Assembly (NCBI GenBank): GCA_041674405.1
Contig: JBAYVT010000003.1
Span: 74,074 to 138,073 of the forward strand
DNA length: 64,000 nucleotides
Direction: 5' to 3'
Source of the DNA: Patescibacteria group bacterium
GTDB taxonomy: Bacteria; Patescibacteriota; UBA1384; XYA2-FULL-43-10
Positions 2,839-57,557 of the stretch are shown here, piece by piece. Both the position numbers and the translations under genes were made by a program. The number at the start of each line of letters is the position of its first letter. Positions within the stretch are counted from its first letter, which is position 1. The notes beneath the pieces are model-generated. The model did no database searches and had not been told where the DNA came from. It saw only the letters and a list, made by a program, of their open reading frames with translations.

Positions 2839-4616
2839 TTTGCTCCCTTCGCGGCTAATTTTTCACCATCTAGGCTGACCTGATAGGCTGAAAGTTCGCC
2901 GGGAGAGAGCTGTGATGATGCAATTTCCCGATAAATATCGCTGGTCTTCATCAGCTCCGAATGAGTCCCCTGCCCAACAATTTTGCCATCATCGAGTACC
3001 AAAATTTTATCAGCAGACAATATCGTTGAAATTCGTTGGGCAACGATCAAAATCGTTTTATTCTTGACCTCTTTTTTGAGTGCCTTTCGAAGCGCTGCAT
3101 CAGTTTTGAAATCAAGGGCAGAAAAACTGTCATCAAAAATATAAATTTCCGGTTTGTGGATTATTGCCCTCGCAATGGAAAGCCGTTGTTTTTGGCCGCC
3201 GGAAACATTGTGACCGCCCTGGGCAATATTAGATTTATATTTATCAGACAGATCTTTTATAAATTCCTTGGCTTGGGCAATTTCTGCCATTTTTCTCACT
3301 TCGGATTCCGATGCCTTTGGCGCACCGTATTTTATGTTGCTCTCGATTGTACCGGAGAAAAGAACGCCCTTTTGCGGCACATAACCGATTTTGGAATACA
3401 GATCTTCAAGTTTCATTTTGCGGACATTGATTCCATCAATCAAAATTTCGCCGGATGTAACATCATAAAATCTTGGGATCAGAGAAATCAAAGTGGTTTT
3501 TCCCGAACCGGTCGAGCCAATGATAGCGGTTGTTTCACCTGGATTAGCGACAAAAGAAATGTTGCAAAGCGCCGCCTCATCTGCGCTTTTGTATTTGAAA
3601 GTTACATCTTTAAATTCAACCAAACCCCTGCCTACTTTTGCAACTTTAACGGGCTTTTTTGGATCCGCAATCGTGGGCTTAGTTTCCAAAATCTCAGAGA
3701 TCCGGGCACCAGAAACCGAGGCACGTGGCACCATGATAAACATAAATGAAAGCAAAAGGAATGACATTATAACTTGCATCGCATATTGCATGAAGGCGAG
3801 CATGTTCCCTACCTCTAAATTCCCGGAACCGATTAGGTGGGCACCAAACCAGATAATGGCAATTGCAGTCAAATTGAAAATAAGCATCATTGCCGGTTGC
3901 ATTATAACCATTACCTGGTTTACAAATAGATTGGTATTGGTAAGGTCAACATTGGCTTTCTCAAATTTATTTTCTTCAATATGTTCATTATTGAAAGCAC
4001 GAATAACGCGTAACCCTGTAAGATTCTGGCGCGTGACCATGTTGAGTTTATCAACAAGCTTCTGCAAAAGCTGAAATTTCGGTAGAGCAATAGTAAAAAG
4101 CACAATAATCACACCAATTAAAATGCATACAGCAAGCGCAATAATCCAGCTCATTGACGGAGCCAGATCATAGGCCTTTATGATTGCGCCAACGCCCATA
4201 ATCGGTGCCTGCAAAACCATGCGTAGCAATAACACTAAAACCATTTGAATCTGCTGAATATCGTTGGTCGATCGTGTAATTAATGAAGCAGTGGAAAATT
4301 TATTAAATTCAGAGAGCGAAAAACTTTCGACTTGAGAGAAAACCTTGTTTCTAATATCCATTGAGTAACCGGTGGCAACTCGAGCAGCAAAATAGCCAAC
4401 ACCGATTGTGGCCACACCTCCCAAAAGTGAATATAGGAGCATGGTCAATCCGGTAGAGAGAATAACATTATTGTTATTTAAAACAATACCTTCGTTTATG
4501 ATCTTTGCCATGTAATCCGGAAGAAGAAGAGTGGTATAAACAGAGACTGACACCAAAATAAACAGAGCAACAATCTGCCAAATATATGGCTTCAAATATT
4601 TAAGAATTTTCAACAT
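2835..4616 (-). CDS. ABC transporter permease/ATP-binding protein, subunit 2 of heterodimeric exporter
   Basis: TM domain plus Walker A GSTGSGKTT, signature VSGGQKQRLSIARA and Walker B IFDDSFSALD. The 4-bp overlap with the downstream partner suggests translational coupling. Confidence 0.9.
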   Translation of the reverse strand: MLKILKYLKPYIWQIVALFILVSVSVYTTLLLPDYMAKIINEGIVLNNNNVILSTGLTMLLYSLLGGVATIGVGYFAARVATGYSMDIRNKVFSQVESFSLSEFNKFSTASLITRSTNDIQQIQMVLVLLLRMVLQAPIMGVGAIIKAYDLAPSMSWIIALAVCILIGVIIVLFTIALPKFQLLQKLVDKLNMVTRQNLTGLRVIRAFNNEHIEENKFEKANVDLTNTNLFVNQVMVIMQPAMMLIFNLTAIAIIWFGAHLIGSGNLEVGNMLAFMQYAMQVIMSFLLLSFMFIMVPRASVSGARISEILETKPTIADPKKPVKVAKVGRGLVEFKDVTFKYKSADEAALCNISFVANPGETTAIIGSTGSGKTTLISLIPRFYDVTSGEILIDGINVRKMKLEDLYSKIGYVPQKGVLFSGTIESNIKYGAPKASESEVRKMAEIAQAKEFIKDLSDKYKSNIAQGGHNVSGGQKQRLSIARAIIHKPEIYIFDDSFSALDFKTDAALRKALKKEVKNKTILIVAQRISTILSADKILVLDDGKIVGQGTHSELMKTSDIYREIASSQLSPGELSAYQVSLDGEKLAAKGAK

Positions 4617-4709
4617 AGATCATTATTTTACTACTCTTGGCAGCCAAGGTCAAGAGAGGCTAAAGCTTAAGATCACTAGCTAATTTTCATCCAAGCCGGA
4701 AATCTTTTG

Positions 4710-5597
4710 TTAGAAATGGAGAGTCTCAATGGAAGTATCAATCTCGTCCATGTATTTTGCAAAACTTAGTGACTCTCGAGGAGTTGTTGTCATAAGGCTA
4801 ACAAAATCTGCATGAACTTTTTTGTCTTGCGCATCAGTTGGGCTCGTTCCATATTGCTTGGAAAGAGTGGCCACTTCGGTAGAGAACGATGTTAATTGCC
4901 GGTTTATCTCAATAATCGCATCGTGATCGGGATTATAAACAAATGCATGATATTCAATCGGTATACCGTAATCCTGGCTATGCGTACCGATCATTGCAAC
5001 ACCTTTGGATTTTCCATCCGTGCTTTTCAAATAATCCATATAAACCCTATCAGCCTTGGCATAGGTCAAAAATTCAACGCTGTATTTATTTAGATCATTC
5101 TTGATATTATCGGTCAATTTACCGGCATTATACAAGTCCTTTACCGCCGCAAGGAGGGATACCCTATCGGAAGCAGACAACTGATACGGCTCGTCACTTC
5201 CTGCGCCTTTTACCCATTCGGAAATTTTATATTCATTTATTACCCCATATACTTCCCCGCCTTTGTTTATAGCATATGTCGTAATTTGAGTCGAAACTCC
5301 TGAAGTATCAGCCTCTTTGGTCAGGGTCCAAGAATCCGGATATTTAAGAGTACCATTTGTGAGCGGAAGAGTTAGTGTTTTCCAGTTTGAAGTGTCGACA
5401 ACAGCTTGAGAGGATAAAGAATTTTCGGATGACGAAGAGTTTGAACTTTTTGCATTAATTTTTGCATTTAAATCATCAACCTGTGACTGCAAATCGTTCT
5501 TTTCCTTCACATACTGGCTATTTAAATAATAGTAGCCGCCGGCCCCGAGAGCTGCCATTACAACTACTGTGATAATCACGATCCAAATTGGTTTCAT
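4710..5597 (-). CDS. hypothetical membrane-anchored protein (N-terminal TM, coiled coil, Ser-rich linker)
   Basis: MKPIWIVIITVVVMAALGAGGYYYL TM anchor. No recognisable catalytic motif. Confidence 0.5.
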   Translation of the reverse strand: MKPIWIVIITVVVMAALGAGGYYYLNSQYVKEKNDLQSQVDDLNAKINAKSSNSSSSENSLSSQAVVDTSNWKTLTLPLTNGTLKYPDSWTLTKEADTSGVSTQITTYAINKGGEVYGVINEYKISEWVKGAGSDEPYQLSASDRVSLLAAVKDLYNAGKLTDNIKNDLNKYSVEFLTYAKADRVYMDYLKSTDGKSKGVAMIGTHSQDYGIPIEYHAFVYNPDHDAIIEINRQLTSFSTEVATLSKQYGTSPTDAQDKKVHADFVSLMTTTPRESLSFAKYMDEIDTSIETLHF

Positions 5598-5651
5598 ATC
5601 CCTCCTGTTTTATGTTCCTGCTACTATTATAGTTTTTTTGCAAGCAATATC

Positions 5652-5676
5652 AAAACGGCTCACCGTGAGCCGTTTT
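5652..5676. terminator. rho-independent terminator-like hairpin (aaaacggctcac/gtgagccgtttt) followed by T-rich tract
   Basis: Perfect 10-12 bp inverted repeat read in sequence, between the two minus-strand genes. Confidence 0.4.
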
Positions 5677-5851
5677 GATCATTTATTTTTAAAAAATTTA
5701 GAATCCGTATGTACTTAAATTTTACATTTAGGCCAATTTTGCAAAAAATAGTATTGATTCAAAGCGGGATACTAAGCGCTGGAGGGGGTAGCGCTTAGTA
5801 TCCCGCTCCCCTTTGCTGCAAGCTAAAAGATATCACTTATCAGCTTGCGGC

Positions 5852-6575: not shown

Positions 6576-7628
6576 TTAATAAAGAGGCAGATTGACTGTG
6601 AAGGTGCTGCCCTCATTGGGTTTTGAGTCGGCAGAAATAGCTCCACCATGTAGTTCTACTATGCGTTTGGCAATTGAGAGCCCAAGGCCATAACTTTTTG
6701 TTTTGTCTTTTGATCTAGAAGAATCGGCCCGGTAGAAACGACCAAAAATATGCGGCAGATCAGAAGGCTCGATACCAACACCCTGATCCTTGATTTTAAT
6801 TTCGGCATGCTGGTGTTCCTTTTTTATCATGATAGATATTTTTGACTCCTCTGGGCTGTATTTGATCGCGTTATCAAGAAGTATGACAAACAATTCAATC
6901 AAGCTCGGCCTATCACCCTTAACTTTGGCTTCGGCAAAATCATTTTCAAAACTTATTTTTTTGCTTTTGGCAATTTTTTCAATTTTTTCATAGGCCTCAA
7001 CAGCAACTTCTGACAAAGAAATTTCTTTGAATTCTTTGTGCGAGTTATCTTCATATTTTGCCAGTTTCAAAAGGGCGTTAGATAGCGTTTCCAATTTTCC
7101 AATTTCTTCCAAGTTGCTATTTAGTAGTTTTTTCGCTTCGCTCAAACTGATTTTTTGGTCGCGCAGGTTCACCTCAATTTCTGATCTCATGGCCGTAAGC
7201 GGGGTTTTTAGTTCATGAGAAGCGTCGGCAGCAAAACGGCTTTGTGCCAACATCATATCTTCGATCGGCTTTAGAGCCCTTTGCGCAAAATAGTACGATA
7301 AGAGTGACGACAAAACCAAAATTAACAGATTGAAGTAGATTAGATTCAATTGCAGGCGACCATTGGTTTCATCGATCTGTTCGTCGCGAATTTTTTCAAG
7401 TTCAGAGATGATCGGATTGCAGTTAACTTCTTCGCAAACGTTTTGCGAAGGTTGAATATTTTTTAAAATTCCGGTTTGGCGCCTTAAGCCCTGTCCGACC
7501 TCTCTGGCAGAAATTTGATAAATGGCCGCAGAAAAAGACACGCTAATGATCATAATGATCAAAACATAGAACAACGTAAGTTTAAGATAAGCGATTTTAA
7601 AATGCATAATAGATATCTCAAATTTCAA
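6576..7628 (-). CDS. sensor histidine kinase (two TM helices, HisKA + HATPase_c)
   Basis: H-box ADASHELKTPLTAMRSE. N, G1 and G2 boxes DQGVGIEPSDLPHIFGRFYRAD...GLGLSIAKRIVELHGG. Confidence 0.85.
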   Translation of the reverse strand: MKFEISIMHFKIAYLKLTLFYVLIIMIISVSFSAAIYQISAREVGQGLRRQTGILKNIQPSQNVCEEVNCNPIISELEKIRDEQIDETNGRLQLNLIYFNLLILVLSSLLSYYFAQRALKPIEDMMLAQSRFAADASHELKTPLTAMRSEIEVNLRDQKISLSEAKKLLNSNLEEIGKLETLSNALLKLAKYEDNSHKEFKEISLSEVAVEAYEKIEKIAKSKKISFENDFAEAKVKGDRPSLIELFVILLDNAIKYSPEESKISIMIKKEHQHAEIKIKDQGVGIEPSDLPHIFGRFYRADSSRSKDKTKSYGLGLSIAKRIVELHGGAISADSKPNEGSTFTVNLPLY

Positions 7629-7719
7629 ATATCAAAAGTCAAAGCTAATGTATTGTACTATATTATTTTTCGGATTTTAAGATGCAAATTTGAGATTTAA
7701 GGTTTGGGTTTTGAGCTAA

Positions 7720-8391: not shown

Positions 8392-8399
8392 GTTTTTAT

Positions 8400-8752
8400 C
8401 TTATAACTAATATGTAACAACTAATAATCTGTTGAATAATTTCCCTCAGTTTTTCGTTTAAAGCCCCGAAGAGACCATTGGGGTTATTAGTTCTAAGTTG
8501 ATAATATACTATATTATCTGAGAAATTGCTGTGATTTTTAACTAAAAAGTTAAATCTAATAACTAATATCCAAATGAATAATCTTCTTTGGTTTTTCGTT
8601 TTTCGCCCTGAAGGGGCCCCTTTGGGGTTATTAGTTTTAGGGTTAATATCTGTGCTAGAATAAGTTGTCTATAATTTTTGAAAGGTTCCTTTGGTTATTA
8701 GTTTTTTCGCCCCGACGGGGCCCCATTGGGGTTATTAGCTGTTAGATAATTT
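8400..8752. promoter_or_regulatory. divergent promoter region containing three copies of a ~45-bp repeat unit (TTTTCGTTT...GCCCCGA(A/C)GGGGC...TTGGGGTTATTAGTT) plus AACTAATAA/TTATTAGTT inverted half-sites
   Basis: Copies at ~8450-8492, 8592-8636 and 8691-8740. Each carries a GC palindrome and the TTGGGGTTATTAG(T/C)T motif, and lies between the divergent RR and PHP genes. Confidence 0.4.
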
Positions 8753-13019: not shown

Positions 13020-13084
13020 CTCAATGGCAGAGCGCTTCGCTGTTAACGAAGATGTTGCTGGTTCGAGTCCAGCTCGGGGAGCCA
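13010..13084 (+). tRNA. tRNA-Asn (anticodon GTT)
   Basis: Cloverleaf read by hand: acceptor tccccga/tcgggga, anticodon loop CTGTTAA, T-arm ggttcgagtcc, discriminator G and encoded CCA. Confidence 0.85.
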
Positions 13085-13221
13085 AGAAAAAAGATTGATT
13101 GTGTAATCAGTCTTTTTTCTTTGTTCAGTAGAATGGACTCGAACCAAGGATGGGGTCGGGAAACATGGGTTTCCCGCTGAGGAAAATACTAAAAACCGAG
13201 GGTTTTTAGAGTGGTTCATAT

Positions 13222-13247
13222 GTCCAGCTCGGGGGGCCAAAGAAAAA
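13222..13247 (+). repeat. decayed direct repeat of the tRNA-Asn 3' end (gtccagctcgggg.gccaa.gaaaaa)
   Basis: 13-nt identity with tRNA 13067-13079 plus a similar A-rich tail, about 150 bp downstream. Resembles an att-site scar. Confidence 0.5.
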
Positions 13248-28270: not shown

Positions 28271-28828
28271 ATGAGCAAAACACAGGAGAATTTACTTAAA
28301 GCGTTTGCCGGCGAATCGATGGCGAGAAACAAGTACACATTCTTTGCCAAGAAAGCGACAGCTGAGGGATTAATTTGGATTGCTAAAGTGTTTGAGGAAA
28401 CGGCCGACAATGAGCGGGCGCATGCCGAGGAAGAATACGAAAAAATGGAGCCAGCTGTCGAGATGACAAATACTTACGACATTAATTCTTTGGGCACGAC
28501 ACTCGAGAATTTACGCCATGCCGCCGCCGGCGAGAATTTTGAATGGACGAAAATGTATCCAGAATTTGAGAAAACCGCGGAAGAAGAAGGAAACGCTGAA
28601 GCTGCCAAACTTTTCAAGGAGATCAAAGAGGTCGAAGAGAAACACGACGAGCGCTATACAATTCTTGCGGACAAACTTGAAAAGGGTGAACTATACAAAT
28701 CCGAGAATGAGATTGAATGGAAATGCCTAAATTGCGGATACATTCATAAAGGAACTTCCGCACCCGACAAGTGTCCTCTCTGCACCAAGCCACAAGGCTG
28801 GTATATGGGATTGGGAATCGTCAGATAA
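28271..28828 (+). CDS. rbr: rubrerythrin (ferritin-like diiron domain + C-terminal rubredoxin-like CxxC...CxxC)
   Basis: LLKAFAGESMARNKY, ExxH motifs. CLNCGYIH...CPLCTKP. Confidence 0.85.
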   Translation: MSKTQENLLKAFAGESMARNKYTFFAKKATAEGLIWIAKVFEETADNERAHAEEEYEKMEPAVEMTNTYDINSLGTTLENLRHAAAGENFEWTKMYPEFEKTAEEEGNAEAAKLFKEIKEVEEKHDERYTILADKLEKGELYKSENEIEWKCLNCGYIHKGTSAPDKCPLCTKPQGWYMGLGIVR

Positions 28829-28865
28829 CTAGTCCTTAGTTTGTAGTCCTTAGTTTGTAGTAATG

Positions 28866-28894
28866 AAAAAATGACCATGTGATGGTCATTTTTT
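28866..28894. terminator. bidirectional rho-independent terminator (aaaaaatgaccat gtg atggtcatttttt)
   Basis: Perfect 13-bp palindrome between convergent rbr and rpoD. Confidence 0.55.
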
Positions 28895-28944
28895 CATATT
28901 TGTATTTGCTGAGGACTACGGACTACTCACTAGAGACTAGCGAA

Positions 28945-30063: not shown

Positions 30064-30077
30064 AATATATAACCCCC

Positions 30078-30190
30078 AAAAACTAAATTCTAAGCCCTAA
30101 ATCCTAAACGATCCTCAAACAATCTCAAATCCGCATATTTACACTTTTGAAATTTTGGATTTTGGATTTATTTTGAGTTTAGGATTTTTT
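30078..30190. repeat. AT-rich imperfect palindromic element (CTAAATCCTAAAC ... GTTTAGGATTT) upstream of rpoD
   Basis: Arms at ~30083-30132 and 30157-30189. Shares the CTAAATCCTAAAC core with the element upstream of ppsA. Confidence 0.35.
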
Positions 30191-30222
30191 CGTATAACAA
30201 TCGTGATTATATCATTTCACGC

Positions 30223-43138: not shown

Positions 43139-43173
43139 GCCCCTCCTACCCGCTCCGCGGGGAAATCTAATCA

Positions 43174-43250
43174 CTAAATCCTAAACTCTAAATATGTTTT
43201 GAAATTGATTTTTGTATTTCGAATTTGTTAAAAATTTAGGATTTAGGTTT
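43174..43250. repeat. AT-rich palindromic element (CTAAATCCTAAACTCTAAAT ... AAATTTAGGATTTAGG) upstream of ppsA
   Basis: Inverted arms at 43174-43193 and 43231-43246. Core shared with the rpoD-upstream element. Confidence 0.35.
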
Positions 43251-43289
43251 TTGAATTTAACAATGTAATTGTACCACAAATATCAAGGG

Positions 43290-44888: not shown

Positions 44889-45019
44889 AATATCTCCCTG
44901 CTTAATTCAAATATTTTGTCTCAAATCTTAAATAATAATTGCTAATTTCTAATAAAAAACAAACTTCCCAGATTTTGCGCTTAGCATTTTGAAGTTTGAA
45001 TTTTAGCTTTATTTTTGTT

Positions 45020-45730
45020 TCAGTTTGATACCCGTATTGGGATGGCTTCTGCTGTCACCGGTTTGTATTCGACGGTATAAGTCAGCGCTTTCTCTTTGTT
45101 GGTTTTTCCCTGGGATTTTACCTCGATAACGTTTACGCCTTTTTGTAATTTGTATTCAGTTGCAAACTGGCCATCTGAAGAAACCTGAATCTGGTCTTTG
45201 TTAACATAAACTTTTGCGCTTGTATCGGTAACACCGGTAATTTCTATCACATCTTTATCAAACACGGCATTATCGTTCGGCGATATTACCTGAAGTTCCG
45301 GTGCGCCTGCAAATCCATAAACCTGATAAACAATGTATCCAAATACTGCAATTATGAATGTACTGATCAAAACAGGAACAAAAAGGCGTGGCGTTAAGAG
45401 AAATTTCATTTCCTTTATATTTCTTTGCGGCAGGATATTTCCCTCTTCTTTCGAAAATCTGATATTTTTTTCTTTTTGGTACTTTTCAAGTATTTTTTTC
45501 TCGTCTAATCCTAAATATTTTGCATAACGCAAAACAAAACCTTTGGTGTAAGCATCGGCCGGCAAATTCTTCCAATCATCTTCCTCGAGAGCTTCCAAAA
45601 ACTTGCCGCGAATTTTGGTTTCCATTTCAGCATCAAGCAGAGAAATCTTTTTGCGCGCTCTTGCGCGCTTGAGTTTCTGCCCAAGTGTTGGGTCTGTTTT
45701 AATTTTTCGAAGTGAAAATCCGGCAGTCAT
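45020..45730 (-). CDS. RodZ-like cytoskeleton protein (HTH + TM + C-terminal beta domain)
   Basis: N-terminal LGQKLKRARARKKISLLDAEMETKIRGKFLEALEEDDWKNLPADAYTKGFVLRYAKYLGLD matches the RodZ HTH. Single TM. Confidence 0.5.
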   Translation of the reverse strand: MTAGFSLRKIKTDPTLGQKLKRARARKKISLLDAEMETKIRGKFLEALEEDDWKNLPADAYTKGFVLRYAKYLGLDEKKILEKYQKEKNIRFSKEEGNILPQRNIKEMKFLLTPRLFVPVLISTFIIAVFGYIVYQVYGFAGAPELQVISPNDNAVFDKDVIEITGVTDTSAKVYVNKDQIQVSSDGQFATEYKLQKGVNVIEVKSQGKTNKEKALTYTVEYKPVTAEAIPIRVSN

Positions 45731-45907
45731 TTCTTAAGTCCGTAGTTAGTAGCCCTTAGTGAAAATTCAAAAAGCAAAATTATTGATTTTGTTTGTTTCT
45801 GACACTTTGTTTTGGTGTTTTATATTTCGGGAAAAGTTGTAATTCTAATCGTGGATTTATCGGTGCCAAATCAGTGGAATAAATTATTGGTCGTTCTCAT
45901 CAAATTA

Positions 45908-48112: not shown

Positions 48113-48127
48113 AATCCCCTCCGGGGT

Positions 48128-48244
48128 AAATTACAAATTACAAGAAACAAATCACAAATAATATCCAATCAGCAATTTCCAATCTCGATACCTTTAGTTG
48201 GAATTAATTTGATATTTGGAATTTGTCATTTGTAATTTGATTTC
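48128..48244. repeat. AT-rich palindromic element upstream of ftsK (AAATTACAAATTACAAG...ATTTGTCATTTGTAATTTG)
   Basis: Inverted arms at ~48128-48160 and 48221-48244 with a nested TTCCAA/TTGGAA inverted repeat. Confidence 0.35.
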
Positions 48245-48339
48245 ATTATATCTCCATTGAACACAATGCGCAATAAATGGTATCTTTAGTTTTAATCCGC
48301 TCTACGATAGCGGCAACCTAGAACCGGAAAGGACAGACT

Positions 48340-48864: not shown

Positions 48865-49070
48865 GCCGCCCAGAACCGCGAACGCCACCCCGGTCGGGGT
48901 GGCGTTTCCACGTTAAATTGCTATTTTGTTTTCCCTGCGGACTAAGGACTACTCACTACTATCTAGTCCTAAACCTCAATAACTACAAGGATGACCACCC
49001 CACTTCGCCAAGGCTACGCGGGGCAAGACTCATTTCAGAGCAAGAGTCGATAATAGATAATCGTTGTGCA

Positions 49071-51032
49071 TTATACCTCGATCACTACAGGGATGACCAT
49101 TGGCCTTCGTTCTGTCTCCGTATATAGGAACTCTCCCATGTCGTCGCGGATTTTCTGCTTGATCAGATTCCAGTCGGGCTGGGTTTTGGCTTCGGTGTGT
49201 TTGGCAAAAAGCCGTTTGATCTCAGCACGGGATTTGTGCACCAGCTGTTCGTTTTCACGCATATAGATGAAGCCGCGAGAAATGATATCGGGAGAGGTAA
49301 CAATCTCGCCAGTCTTGTGATCAACGGTAACAATAATGACAAAAATTCCATCCTGGGCCATTGCCTTTCTGTCGCGAAGAACGATGTTGCCTACATCGCC
49401 AACGCCGAGGCCGTCAACCATCACATAAGATGCAGGAACGCGCTTGTTGGTAACCGAGCCCATATCTTTTGAGAATTCAATTACCTGGCCGTTATCGGCA
49501 ACGAGGCAATGCTCTTCGTCGACGATTCCCATATCTTGGGCAATCTGCGCGAGTAGCATCAATCTGTGGCGTTCGCCGTGGGTCGGGATCAAATATTTCG
49601 GGCGGACAAGCGCGATCATCAATTTCAGGTCTTCCTGCTTGGCATGGCCAGAAGTGTGAACATCCATAAGTTTTTGATAGATTACGCGCGAGCCGGCGCG
49701 ATACAGATTGTCCATAAGCTCGGAAACAGATCGCTCATTACCTGGAATTGGCGAGGCCGAAAGAACAGTCGTGTCGCCTCTTTTTATCTTGATTTGGCGA
49801 TGTTCACCAAGGGCAATTCGGGTCAGGGCAGCGCGGTCTTCTCCTTGCGAACCGGTACAAACAATTATTACCTTATTATCCGGATAATTTTTTAACGCAT
49901 GAACATCGATGACGGTATCCTTCGGCACGACAAGAGCGCCAAGCGAGGTAGCAATCTCGTATGATTGGAGCATCGATCGGCCAACAAAAGTAACTTTGCG
50001 GTCGAATTTCTTGGCGACATTCAAAATTTGCTGAATACGCGAGATCAAAAGTGAGAATGTTGCGATGATTAGGCGCCCTTTGACCTGATCCATGATTTTG
50101 AAAATCGTATCTTCGATTTCTCGCTCAGATATTGAAACCCCTGGTTTTTCGACATTGGTACATTCGCAAATTAGCGCCGCTGGTTTCTCTCCGCCGAGCA
50201 TAGCAATCTGTGAAAAATCGACCGGCTTGCCATCAGCTGGGGTATGGTCAAATTTCCAGTCGCCAGTATGAATAACCAGACCTTCTGGCGTGTCGATCGC
50301 AAAACCCATCGCCTGTGGAATTGAGTGAGTAAGCCGAAAAGTCCTTACCTTAAATACCCCAAGCTGAAGTACATCTTTGCCAGCTTCGATCGTATTTAAT
50401 TTAGCTCCCTCGGCCAGGCCAAATTCTTCCATCTTGCCACGAATAAGGCCGATAGCAAGGGGCGATGAATAGATCTGGGGCGAGCCAAGCTTTTCATAGA
50501 TGTAAGGTATGGCCCCAATGTGATCCAAGTGGCCATGAGTGATGAGAAGGGCACGAATTTTATGCTTGTTTTGCTCAAGATACGAGACATCGGGAATGAC
50601 GAAGTCAATGCCTGGCATATCCTGGTCCGGAAACATAAGCCCGGCATCGATAATGATAATGTCGTTCTTATACTCTAGAACCATCATATTTTTACCACCA
50701 GTTTCTTCATTGCCACCGATAGGAATGATTCGAAGCTTTGGCTCTATAAAAAATTTGGTGTTTTTGCCTTCGGTTGATTGGGCAGTAAATCTTGGTTCAT
50801 CAACTTTTCCCGAAATTTTAGCATAGTCAAAAGATCTGCCACCCTCGGGTTTTTGCACAGGACGAGAATTTCGTTTATGCGGTGTTTTCTGACCGGATGA
50901 TCGGCTAACAAAAGCCTGATCGCCCGCAACGGTGCGCACAGGTGAAGAAACGCTGTGTTTTGGCACAGGTTTGTTTGCTCGGATGTTTCTCGTTGTCCGT
51001 CCACCTGTGTTTACTCTTTGCATTTTTTCCAT
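49071..51032 (-). CDS. rnj: ribonuclease J (beta-CASP metallo-beta-lactamase) with ~100-aa basic N-terminal extension
   Basis: HGHLDHIGA (HxHxDH). Beta-CASP motifs. IIPLGG-like start only after a K/R/S/P-rich 100-aa leader. Confidence 0.9.
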   Translation of the reverse strand: MEKMQRVNTGGRTTRNIRANKPVPKHSVSSPVRTVAGDQAFVSRSSGQKTPHKRNSRPVQKPEGGRSFDYAKISGKVDEPRFTAQSTEGKNTKFFIEPKLRIIPIGGNEETGGKNMMVLEYKNDIIIIDAGLMFPDQDMPGIDFVIPDVSYLEQNKHKIRALLITHGHLDHIGAIPYIYEKLGSPQIYSSPLAIGLIRGKMEEFGLAEGAKLNTIEAGKDVLQLGVFKVRTFRLTHSIPQAMGFAIDTPEGLVIHTGDWKFDHTPADGKPVDFSQIAMLGGEKPAALICECTNVEKPGVSISEREIEDTIFKIMDQVKGRLIIATFSLLISRIQQILNVAKKFDRKVTFVGRSMLQSYEIATSLGALVVPKDTVIDVHALKNYPDNKVIIVCTGSQGEDRAALTRIALGEHRQIKIKRGDTTVLSASPIPGNERSVSELMDNLYRAGSRVIYQKLMDVHTSGHAKQEDLKLMIALVRPKYLIPTHGERHRLMLLAQIAQDMGIVDEEHCLVADNGQVIEFSKDMGSVTNKRVPASYVMVDGLGVGDVGNIVLRDRKAMAQDGIFVIIVTVDHKTGEIVTSPDIISRGFIYMRENEQLVHKSRAEIKRLFAKHTEAKTQPDWNLIKQKIRDDMGEFLYTETERRPMVIPVVIEV

Positions 51033-55439: not shown

Positions 55440-55760
55440 GAGATGAGTTCGTGAAAGTGAAAGGAAACGACAATCCGTTGATACAATCGTTTATACAGTA
55501 GTTGAACCAGTAGTAATACTATTGTTTTAACAACCGTATCAACTACCGAGTTAACTATGTGTCAACTGAGTTCCCGGAAATTTCTTTTGCAATTTCCTCT
55601 CACCTACCAACCCATCCTTCTTGTTACTAATTTATATTGTATTTACCTCACAGAATTTTTTCACAGAATTTCACAGATAATTTCGCTGGTCATACCCACA
55701 CTGAACCTTTTTCATGAGCGTTTTCTGTGTCCTTCTGTGAATTTTTCTGTGGAGTAATAT
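55440..55760 (-). promoter_or_regulatory. structured rpsO-pnp intergenic leader with multiple inverted repeats (CACAGAA x3 / TTCTGTG x3; GTTGATAC/GTATCAAC)
   Basis: Repeats read at 55649-55680 and 55723-55752, and an inverted repeat at ~55467-55546. Position matches the known pnp autoregulatory leader. Confidence 0.4.
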
Positions 55761-55767
55761 TCCGCTC

Positions 55768-56207: not shown

Positions 56208-57392
56208 TTAATTCGTCTTCGGTTGTTCTACTGGCTGAACCAGTTTACCGTTCATCTCTTTCGTGTATTCCCGAATTTTTTGAATAATGGCCGACGAGCC
56301 GTTCTCAAGCGTAACATCAGACACTTCGAAACCGGCAGCTTGCGAATGGCCGCCCCCAGAAAATAGTTTCGCTATAGCAGAAACGTCGACACCTTTTTCG
56401 ACTGAACGAAGCGAGCCGTTCAAAATTCCGCCTTTTTCAGAGAGTAAAAGAACAAATTTGGCGCCAGAAACGGTTTTCAAAAGCTCGTCGATCACTCCAC
56501 CAGATTCAGACTCAGCTGCACCCACTTCAACATAATCATTGGCAGAAAGAGAACTCCAGACAAAGCCATAATCTTTTTCGTCGTGGATATTGGCGAGTGC
56601 TCGGCCCCAAAGTCGTAGTGTTGAAAGAGGCCGTGTTTTATAAATATTTTTGATAATTTCGTCGCGCTTGGCACCAGCTGCTACCAACTGGGCTGCGACA
56701 GTAAGCGATTTCGGAGTTGTATTCGTATTTTGGAACGAGCCGGTATCGGTGACTATTCCGGTAAGTAAAAGGGTGGCAATCTTTTCATCGAATGGCGATT
56801 TTTCCGGCGATAGTGCTTCCAACAAAGAAACCAATATCTCTGCAGTTGAGGTTGATGTCACATCGACCAAGTTCACTTGGCCAAAATAATCATTGCCGGA
56901 ATGATGATCAATGTTTATGACCGGTGTCTCATAAAACAGATCGGGATTTTTTTCAAATGGCGTGCCCAACCGTTCGAGATCTGGAGAATCCAATACTATA
57001 ATAAGATCAAAATTGAAGCCCCCTTCCGGAAATTCAACCATCTCTTTCGTAAATACGCCCGATTTCGGCGAAATGATAATATTGAGCTTATCATCAGAAA
57101 CCTTATACATTATTTTGTCAGCTTTCACATCCTTGGTCGAAAGGGAGATAACAAAATCGCGAACACCGGCAAAATCACGGGAAATTTCGGAGACATTTGG
57201 CAAAAAATTGAAGACCTCCGGAGTAGGCTCGTTGCAGACGGAAATTGCTTCCTTGCCGATGTTTTTGAAGAATGACAAAAGCGCCAGAGAGCTGCCAAGA
57301 GCATCTCCATCAGGATCCTTGTGGGTGAGAATTAAAATCTTTTTCGCCTCCTTAATTCTCGTCACCGCTTGTTGTTTGGGCGAAAGTTCCAC
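56208..57392 (-). CDS. nrnA: bifunctional oligoribonuclease/pAp phosphatase NrnA (DHH-DHHA1)
   Basis: ILILTHKDPDGDALGSSLAL DHH motif. GGGHSQAAGF DHHA1 motif. Confidence 0.8.
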   Translation of the reverse strand: MELSPKQQAVTRIKEAKKILILTHKDPDGDALGSSLALLSFFKNIGKEAISVCNEPTPEVFNFLPNVSEISRDFAGVRDFVISLSTKDVKADKIMYKVSDDKLNIIISPKSGVFTKEMVEFPEGGFNFDLIIVLDSPDLERLGTPFEKNPDLFYETPVINIDHHSGNDYFGQVNLVDVTSTSTAEILVSLLEALSPEKSPFDEKIATLLLTGIVTDTGSFQNTNTTPKSLTVAAQLVAAGAKRDEIIKNIYKTRPLSTLRLWGRALANIHDEKDYGFVWSSLSANDYVEVGAAESESGGVIDELLKTVSGAKFVLLLSEKGGILNGSLRSVEKGVDVSAIAKLFSGGGHSQAAGFEVSDVTLENGSSAIIQKIREYTKEMNGKLVQPVEQPKTN

Positions 57393-57557
57393 TTAGTTAC
57401 TTAAGAACTTAGAAACTTATGAACCCAAGAACAGCTTGATACAATTTTGTCCTTTGGTTCTTCAGTCCTTTCGTTCTTCAGTTAATGATAAACACTCGAA
57501 TATAGCGGAAGGTGTTTTGAAAGTCAAGATGAATTTAAATGCAAACCGCAGTTCAAT

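Follow-up and report, generated by a model that had tools for sequence, protein, structure and literature searches.

The GGACTA motif of this patescibacterial DNA is the complement of degenerate (TAGTNNN)4-5 heptad arrays that lie on the strand of the adjacent gene, where each unit reads TAGT followed by three variable bases. The three arrays behind the motif were found in the window, the whole stretch of 64,000 nucleotides analyzed here, and they start at, or no more than 8 nt from, a stop codon (that of rubrerythrin, that of rpoD and the ancestral one of RNase J). A terminator-type hairpin is found 0-30 nt past each of the three. We consider the chances about even that these are arrays born by slippage and anchored on stop codons, which act as an all-frame stop and spacer before the terminator. 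The anchoring of the arrays on stop codons is suggestive but unproven. The window is part of a 152-kb metagenome contig, and the RpoD and RNase J encoded in the window place the source genome in Patescibacteria, near Berkelbacteria.

Arrays, stop codons and hairpins

The repeat was originally predicted from two near-identical 32-mers, at 28909-28940 and 48935-48966, and these were confirmed: 26 of the 32 positions are equal, including 22 of the first 24. A repeat search of the window returned a 34-nt pair (28899-28932 and 48925-48958) with 85% identity (29/34 nt). In addition, the 14-mer GGACTAMGGACTAC has four matches in the window when up to two mismatches are allowed, compared to 0.20 expected, and none of 100 shuffles reached this number. 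GGACTA alone is not enriched in the window (19 matches, 14.1 +/- 4.0 expected). A recurrent repeat, restricted to intergenic DNA and beyond chance, is supported. The tandem AGTCCTTAGTTTGT x2 is also present at 28831-28858, and Tandem Repeats Finder describes it with a period of 14, 2.3 copies and 100% matches; the period of 14 (2 x 7) extends with 100% matches over 28830-28861. The same word had been proposed to occur there twice in inverted orientation, which holds in part: an exact CTAAGGACTAC match was obtained only for the 11-mer GTAGTCCTTAG at 28843-28853, and the copy at 28830 agrees at 10 of 11 positions. The coordinates of the arrays and the neighboring hairpins are collected in Table 1.

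Table 1. Heptad arrays and hairpins of the window; array units are written on the strand given.
Feature	Positions	Strand	Sequence
Rubrerythrin post-stop heptad array (site A)	28830..28864	+	TAGTCCT TAGTTTG TAGTCCT TAGTTTG TAGTAAT
Bidirectional intrinsic-terminator hairpin (site A)	28863..28897	.	ATGAAAAAATGACCAT-GTG-ATGGTCATTTTTTCAT; A-tract on one side, T-tract on the other
rpoD post-stop heptad array (site A)	28912..28944	-	TAGTCTC TAGTGAG TAGTCCG TAGTCCT; plus-strand form is GGACTACGGACTACTCACTAGAGACTAG of the original prediction
Degenerate relative of the arrays	45737..45761	+	AGTCCG TAGTTAG TAGCCCT TAGTG; three TAG at 7-nt spacing
GC-rich hairpin ~30 nt beyond the site B array	48881..48906	.	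AACGCCACCCCGG-TCGG-GGTGGCGTT
RNase J-side heptad array, second copy (site B)	48938..48971	-	TAG (48971-48969), GAC, TAGATAG TAGTGAG TAGTCCT TAGTCCG

Site A, 28829-28944, is the entire spacer between the convergent genes for rubrerythrin (plus strand) and rpoD (minus strand). The rubrerythrin stop codon TAA (28826-28828) is followed by one base (C) and then by the array, in which five stops follow one another exactly 7 nt apart. On the minus strand the rpoD stop codon TAG (28947-28945) is followed by TTCGC and by an array with four TAG at 7-nt spacing, the units of which are degenerate, neighbors being alike at 4-7 of 7 positions. The hairpin of site A comprises 16 pairs and a T-rich tail, caps the minimum-energy fold of either strand, and is the only one of the two hairpins that combines a GC-containing stem with a T-run in the manner of an intrinsic terminator. 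The terminator proper does not include the GGACTA motif. Since the rubrerythrin and rpoD arrays face each other, they appear as a 33-nt inverted repeat around the bidirectional terminator. The independent JGI assembly L016 has the same sequence across site A, which is therefore no assembly artefact.

Site B lies between a small ORF of the plus strand and the RNase J gene of the minus strand, beside the GC-rich hairpin, which is terminator-like with a weak T-tail and was not called as a terminator. At the equivalent position in the relatives L018 and L019 there are hairpins of the GCGAACGCC...GGCGTTCGCGG type, and stop-rich words follow directly after IEV* in both. In the window, a duplicate of the RNase J end is found 104 nt downstream of the present stop codon, and its TAG is the first TAG of site B. 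The site B array therefore begins at a former RNase J stop, so that each of the three arrays starts at a stop codon, either present or former. It looks like a small insertion or duplication moved the RNase J stop 104 nt upstream of the old one. The duplicated 3' end measures 28 nt (48969-48996 and 49071-49098 on the minus strand, 24/28 identical) and both copies encode VI(P/L)VVIEV*. They are separated by approximately 75 nt of unrelated sequence, which contains a CCCCGCG...GTGGGG hairpin and, at the present stop, a TATAAT-like box.

A third, related string, AGTCCGTAGTTAGTAGCCCTTAGTG, does exist in the window, at 45737-45761 and not at 45725-45752 as first given. It is antisense to both of its neighbors and abuts the start codon, at 45730, of an HTH_25 gene (45020..45730, minus strand). 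All the sites had been placed in 3' intergenic spacers; they are indeed intergenic, this one being next to a start codon and not in a 3' spacer.

Periodicity and distribution of the arrays

The window contains nine runs of at least four stop triplets at an exact spacing of 7 nt, all of them intergenic, while the other lags from 4 to 12 yield 0-2 such runs. Runs of at least three units over the whole window are uninformative, as coding sequence dominates them, and only runs of at least four or runs of TAG alone discriminate. In 143 kb of pooled CPR DNA, runs of at least three TAG number nine at lag 7 and four at lag 14, with 0-1 at other lags not divisible by three, and the lag-7 enrichment is the highest for TAG/CTA among the 64 trinucleotides (approximately 32-fold); detecting arrays by TAG runs partly builds in the apparent conservation of TAG. 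The core triplet interchanges between TAG, TAA and TGA inside single arrays. The TAG heptad arrays total seven in the 81.6 kb of the source genome covered, and extending the search to this length gave no additional copy of the GGACTA type. All three reading frames are closed within 24 nt past the stop codon in 10.2% of 157 CPR genes, compared to 3.9% in shuffles (maximum 8.3%) and 2.5% on the antisense strand.

The post-rpoD site could be followed in several relatives. In L017 (RpoD 94%) rubrerythrin is convergent with rpoD as in the window, and the array reads TAGTTCG TAGTTTG TAGTCCT TAGTCCT TAGAACA, the rpoD stop codon being its first unit. The stem sequence of the terminator has been replaced with the A and T tracts kept, and a GAAGAAC-type word, not complementary to the array, serves as the second arm. 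In L154 (RpoD 87%) the rpoD stop is followed by TAAATTTGAA x3, a TAA array with a period of 10, which also covers all three frames. A terminator comes after the array in both genomes. No array was found after rpoD in L008, L010 and L011 (RpoD 81-84%). What persists over a short evolutionary range is a stop-bearing array with a period not divisible by three between the stop codon and the terminator; sequence, pairing and unit do not persist between relatives. The unit sequence itself differs between the window, L017 and L154.

Outside the lineage, 185,579 species-representative genomes contain four matches to the exact 20-mer, roughly what chance would give; JGI metagenomes contain two and viral contigs none. 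All six lie inside (TAGTCCN)n arrays, in genomes of 36-63% GC labeled Acidimicrobiia, Blastocatellia and Saccharibacteria and in two metagenome contigs without a taxon label. The neighbors are housekeeping genes (groES/EL, PPDK, gatC). In four of the six loci (L002, L003, L004 and L005) the stop codon of the gene is itself a unit of the array; at L014 and L015 the arrays are not anchored on a long ORF. An inverted partner is present at L003, L005 and L014. Further stop-cored heptad arrays were noted in two of these contigs, TGATCGG x4-5 and TAACGGA at approximately 1200-1400 of L015, and TAATTCN, TAACACA and TAACAAG at 1587, 1770 and 2469 of L004 (Saccharibacteria).

The repeat is thus not specific to one genome, as had been suggested, and a genome-specific REP was ruled out because the 20-mer matches fall in like arrays of unrelated phyla. 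The (TAGTCCN)3 arrays are also found in 19 viral contigs of 28-68% GC, where they are not anchored on stop codons, have no inverted partner, and mutate freely at the TAG position. Among viral contigs (TAGTCCN)3 occurs at 19 loci, (TAGCCTN)3 at 31 and (TGGTCCN)3 at 82. As heptamer arrays of arbitrary unit are common there, nothing singles out TAGTCC, and no horizontal transfer need be invoked for a shared 20-mer. A BLAST search of plasmids with a synthetic array gave no match, probably owing to low-complexity masking.

The source genome and its relatives contain other repeats. Long imperfect hairpins (-14 to -37 kcal/mol) are found in many co-directional spacers (7600-7719, 30070-30200, 43160-43265, 44895-45015, 48120-48245, 55640-55767 and 57390-57490), the arms being low-complexity words of short period (AAATCC/GGATTT, CAAAT/ATTTG, GAAGAAC/GTTCTTC and CACAGA/TCTGTG). 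Several of them extend from a few nucleotides past a TATAAT-like -10 box to a point immediately ahead of a Shine-Dalgarno sequence. They look like 5'-terminal stem-loops of mRNAs, which is relevant as the genome encodes RNase J. Relatives have these word families as well, at non-orthologous sites, and the family in the spacer between dnaG and rpoD changes from relative to relative or is missing. The dnaG gene of the relative L006 (RpoD 93%; 2931-5789) encodes 952 aa compared to approximately 580, with Pfam hits to Hint and homing-endonuclease domains, which indicates a putative intein that is absent from dnaG of the window. The 3' end of tRNA-Asn, TCCAGCTCGGGGAGCCAAGAAAAA (13068-13091), is repeated approximately 155 nt downstream as TCCAGCTCGGGGGGCCAAAGAAAAA (13223-13246), resembling the att-like scar that an element might leave on integration or excision; just upstream of this tRNA there is a small GIY-YIG-like ORF. 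The divergent spacer 8392-8752 contains three tandem units, 104-144 nt apart, in which the GC-rich hairpin CGCCCYGAMGGGGC is followed by CCNTTGGGGTTATTAG, flanked by AACTAATA/TTATTAGTT words.

Origin, possible role and alternative explanations

Seven is not a multiple of three (7 mod 3 = 1), and three or more units therefore put a stop codon in every frame. In the explanation that we favor, replication slippage of 7-nt units would create the arrays and turn them over. The two near-identical copies may owe their similarity to gene conversion between arrays or to a duplication; a shared preference for TAGTCC units is an alternative. With less weight, a function can be suggested: directly past the gene, the array would serve as an all-frame translational stop and a spacer, so that ribosomes that read through or shift frame would not reach the terminator hairpin, and two facing arrays would lengthen the terminator stem in any read-through RNA. 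Such a barrier is plausible but unproven. The enriched all-frame closure and the interchange of TAG, TAA and TGA appear to support it only modestly. Several observations speak against a selected stop function: the arrays follow a minority of genes, and off-frame stops are already common in AT-rich spacers; many heptad arrays of the source genome have non-stop sense cores such as CAAAT; in viral contigs the non-stop control (TGGTCCN)3 is commoner than (TAGTCCN)3; the copy at 45737 is antisense beside a start codon, L014 and L015 are unanchored, and there is no array after rpoD at 81-84% RpoD identity. It is unlikely, in our judgment, that post-stop arrays with a period not divisible by three form a selected all-frame ribosome barrier that shields the intrinsic terminator across phyla, one that slippage would keep regenerating and that would be retained as every unit carries a stop.

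The arrays could also be neutral slippage debris, i.e., meaningless heptamer microsatellites tolerated from the stop codon outward, with the stops and the pairing as side effects. Any-unit heptamer arrays are common, as the three viral counts illustrate (19, 31 and 82 loci), turnover between close relatives is fast and more distant ones lack the arrays, the cores alone account for the complementarity, sense and antisense strands of 10 hairpin regions fold without asymmetry, and slippage is the published account of the heptamer excess. Less easily reconciled with debris are the closure of all frames past stop codons in excess of both shuffles and the antisense strand, a triplet that stays a stop while the spacers vary (TAG/TAA/TGA interchange included), and a post-rpoD site with TAG arrays of period 7 in two genomes and a TAA array of period 10 in another. 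We regard neutral debris as possible, with the chances somewhat against it. Selection for pairing would instead make the arrays an RNA structure element, extending the terminator into a hairpin of approximately 45 bp that stabilizes 3' ends, or providing an RNase III site in read-through RNA. For the plus strand of the site A spacer, folding gives a single long hairpin of -53.2 kcal/mol (z = -9.0), and for its minus strand one of -47.4 kcal/mol (z = -8.3); the arms at L003 pair at 18/18 positions with a variant unit included, and similar long hairpins fill many 5'UTR-type spacers of the source genome. The complementarity, however, does not go beyond a core-only null, in which the TAGT/ACTA cores are fixed and the three variable positions of each unit are shuffled: the fold of site A is -52.1 kcal/mol against -45.4 +/- 4.5 in the null, at the 6.8th percentile, so that the complementarity of site A is essentially what two facing like arrays must give. 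Moreover, the outer arms in L017 are non-complementary, site B has one arm only, and a transcript ending at the terminator would hold a single arm. An RNA structure element is quite unlikely. A selected inverted repeat is disfavored as the primary feature by the core-preserving null together with the L017 orthologue. Strand-specific RNA selection through G-U asymmetry was rejected, there being no consistent bias between sense and antisense folding in the 10 hairpin regions.

Two further alternatives invoke a binding protein and a mobile element. UAG-N4 repeats might be bound by an oligomeric RNA-binding protein that modulates the terminator, or ACTA repeats might be a DNA site; candidate binders would be HutP/TRAP-like proteins, or S1, Csp or CsrA as proposed for the TAACTGA repeats discussed below. 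HutP binds three XAG motifs, set 4 nt apart, to either side of a terminator stem, and the hut terminator of Bacillus subtilis has at least three U/XAG with such spacers beside the hairpin, as here (PMC2425495). At site A, five UAG in the plus-strand RNA and four in the minus-strand RNA stand at 7-nt spacing directly 5' of the hairpin, which is a pattern of sequence only, and ANGGA words of the CsrA type occur in the complementary strand. However, the hut system is one regulated locus, served by its own protein, and its sites overlap the terminator stem (PMC2425495), whereas several loci are involved here and the arrays are clear of the stem, so that the resemblance is formal only. Nor was a HutP-like protein found among 10 small ORFs scanned against Pfam, like arrays are present in phyla with very different repertoires of RNA-binding proteins, and the spacers, even the period, change between close relatives. 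Binding of this kind is very unlikely to be the explanation. REPs are conserved palindromic units found in tens to hundreds of near-identical copies and linked to RAYT transposases. The original prediction had considered a REP-like element or the end of a small mobile element, and in a REP/REPIN- or MITE-like reading, a small non-autonomous element with the arrays as its arms would copy itself from one intergenic site to another. Such repeats (REP/BIME and REPIN of proteobacteria) are short, lie near terminators of convergent genes and sometimes form inverted pairs, as here; two non-orthologous sites of the window are alike at 29/34 nt, GAAGAAC, CACAGA and AAATCC words recur in non-orthologous spacers of different relatives, and the dnaG-rpoD spacer family differs or is missing from one relative to the next. 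The segment that the copies have in common is, however, a direct tandem array of 7-nt units with no palindromic unit, and in 81.6 kb of the source genome only two copies are alike beyond the 4-nt core and only one copy of the GGACTA type is two-armed, far from tens to hundreds. There are no fixed ends and no target-site duplication (the 34-mer is flanked by CATA...GAGA at site A and by CTAT...CTAT-CTAG at site B), the internal sequences are unrelated and there is no common body, site A enclosing a terminator and site B lacking a second arm. No Y1 transposase/RAYT was found among the 10 small ORFs scanned against Pfam, and the 20-mer is absent from viral contigs. The mobile-hairpin explanation has hardly any likelihood left.

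Known heptamer repeats and wider meaning

Judged by its sequence, the feature belongs to a known class and is a local example of intergenic heptamer simple repeats: four to five TAG at exact 7-nt spacing are found at 28830 (plus strand), 28939 and 48965 (both minus strand), with an excess of period 7 beyond base composition. Heptanucleotides are described as the most abundant long simple-sequence repeats of most prokaryotic genomes, and polymerase slippage has been blamed for them (PMC4679880, PMC4692102). As summarized in these two papers, the LSSRs of Mrazek et al. (2007), including the cyanobacterial STRR heptanucleotides, resemble the arrays described here in consisting of head-to-tail 7-nt units, in being intergenic and phylogenetically scattered, in varying in number and sequence among close relatives, and in their proposed origin by slippage. 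Compared to the LSSRs so summarized, the arrays of the window are degenerate as well as short, with 4-5 units of which only the TAG(T) core is kept, and they begin at stop codons and precede terminators. No description of heptamer arrays that start at a stop and precede a terminator in Patescibacteria was found in the literature searched, which also yielded nothing relevant on the sequence of the motif.

The nearest analogue is the TAACTGA repeat of marine Beggiatoaceae, Cyanobacteria and Bacteroidetes (MacGregor, 2015; PMC4679880), also a stop-bearing heptamer that, read in forward orientation, covers all frames and occurs in distant phyla, with 2-6 copies per set and many sets per genome in intergenic DNA at gene boundaries. 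The TAACTGA sets are mostly located just upstream of start codons and consist of near-perfect copies of one unit (PMC4679880), whereas the arrays here follow stop codons, have variable spacers and include a face-to-face pair. The GGGAATC repeats of Xanthomonas (Rehm et al., 2015; PMC4692102) are intergenic heptamers as well, and some form convergent pairs on opposite strands that can fold into stem-loops or cruciforms, their length and sequence varying between related species. They are G-rich and quadruplex-forming with no stop in the unit (PMC4692102), whereas the units here are TAG-cored without G-runs. Among RNA families, only two tRNAs pass the Rfam gathering score in the window, and E-value scans of both sites gave only sub-threshold matches to generic hairpin (miRNA-precursor) models. 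The complementarity of GGACUAC to 16S rRNA, at the position of primer 806R, is probably a 7-mer coincidence.

If slippage is all there is to the arrays, they call for caution: intergenic motifs of metagenome bins may be heptamer microsatellites that mimic REPs or inverted repeats, and one 20-mer can appear in unrelated phyla without transfer. If, on the other hand, the stop-anchored property is selected, it would be a simple and overlooked means of insulating terminators and neighboring genes from aberrant translation. As a Saccharibacteria MAG carries like arrays, selection of this kind is testable in cultivable Saccharibacteria, and it would offer a functional reading of the long-noted and unexplained excess of heptamers in prokaryotic intergenic DNA.
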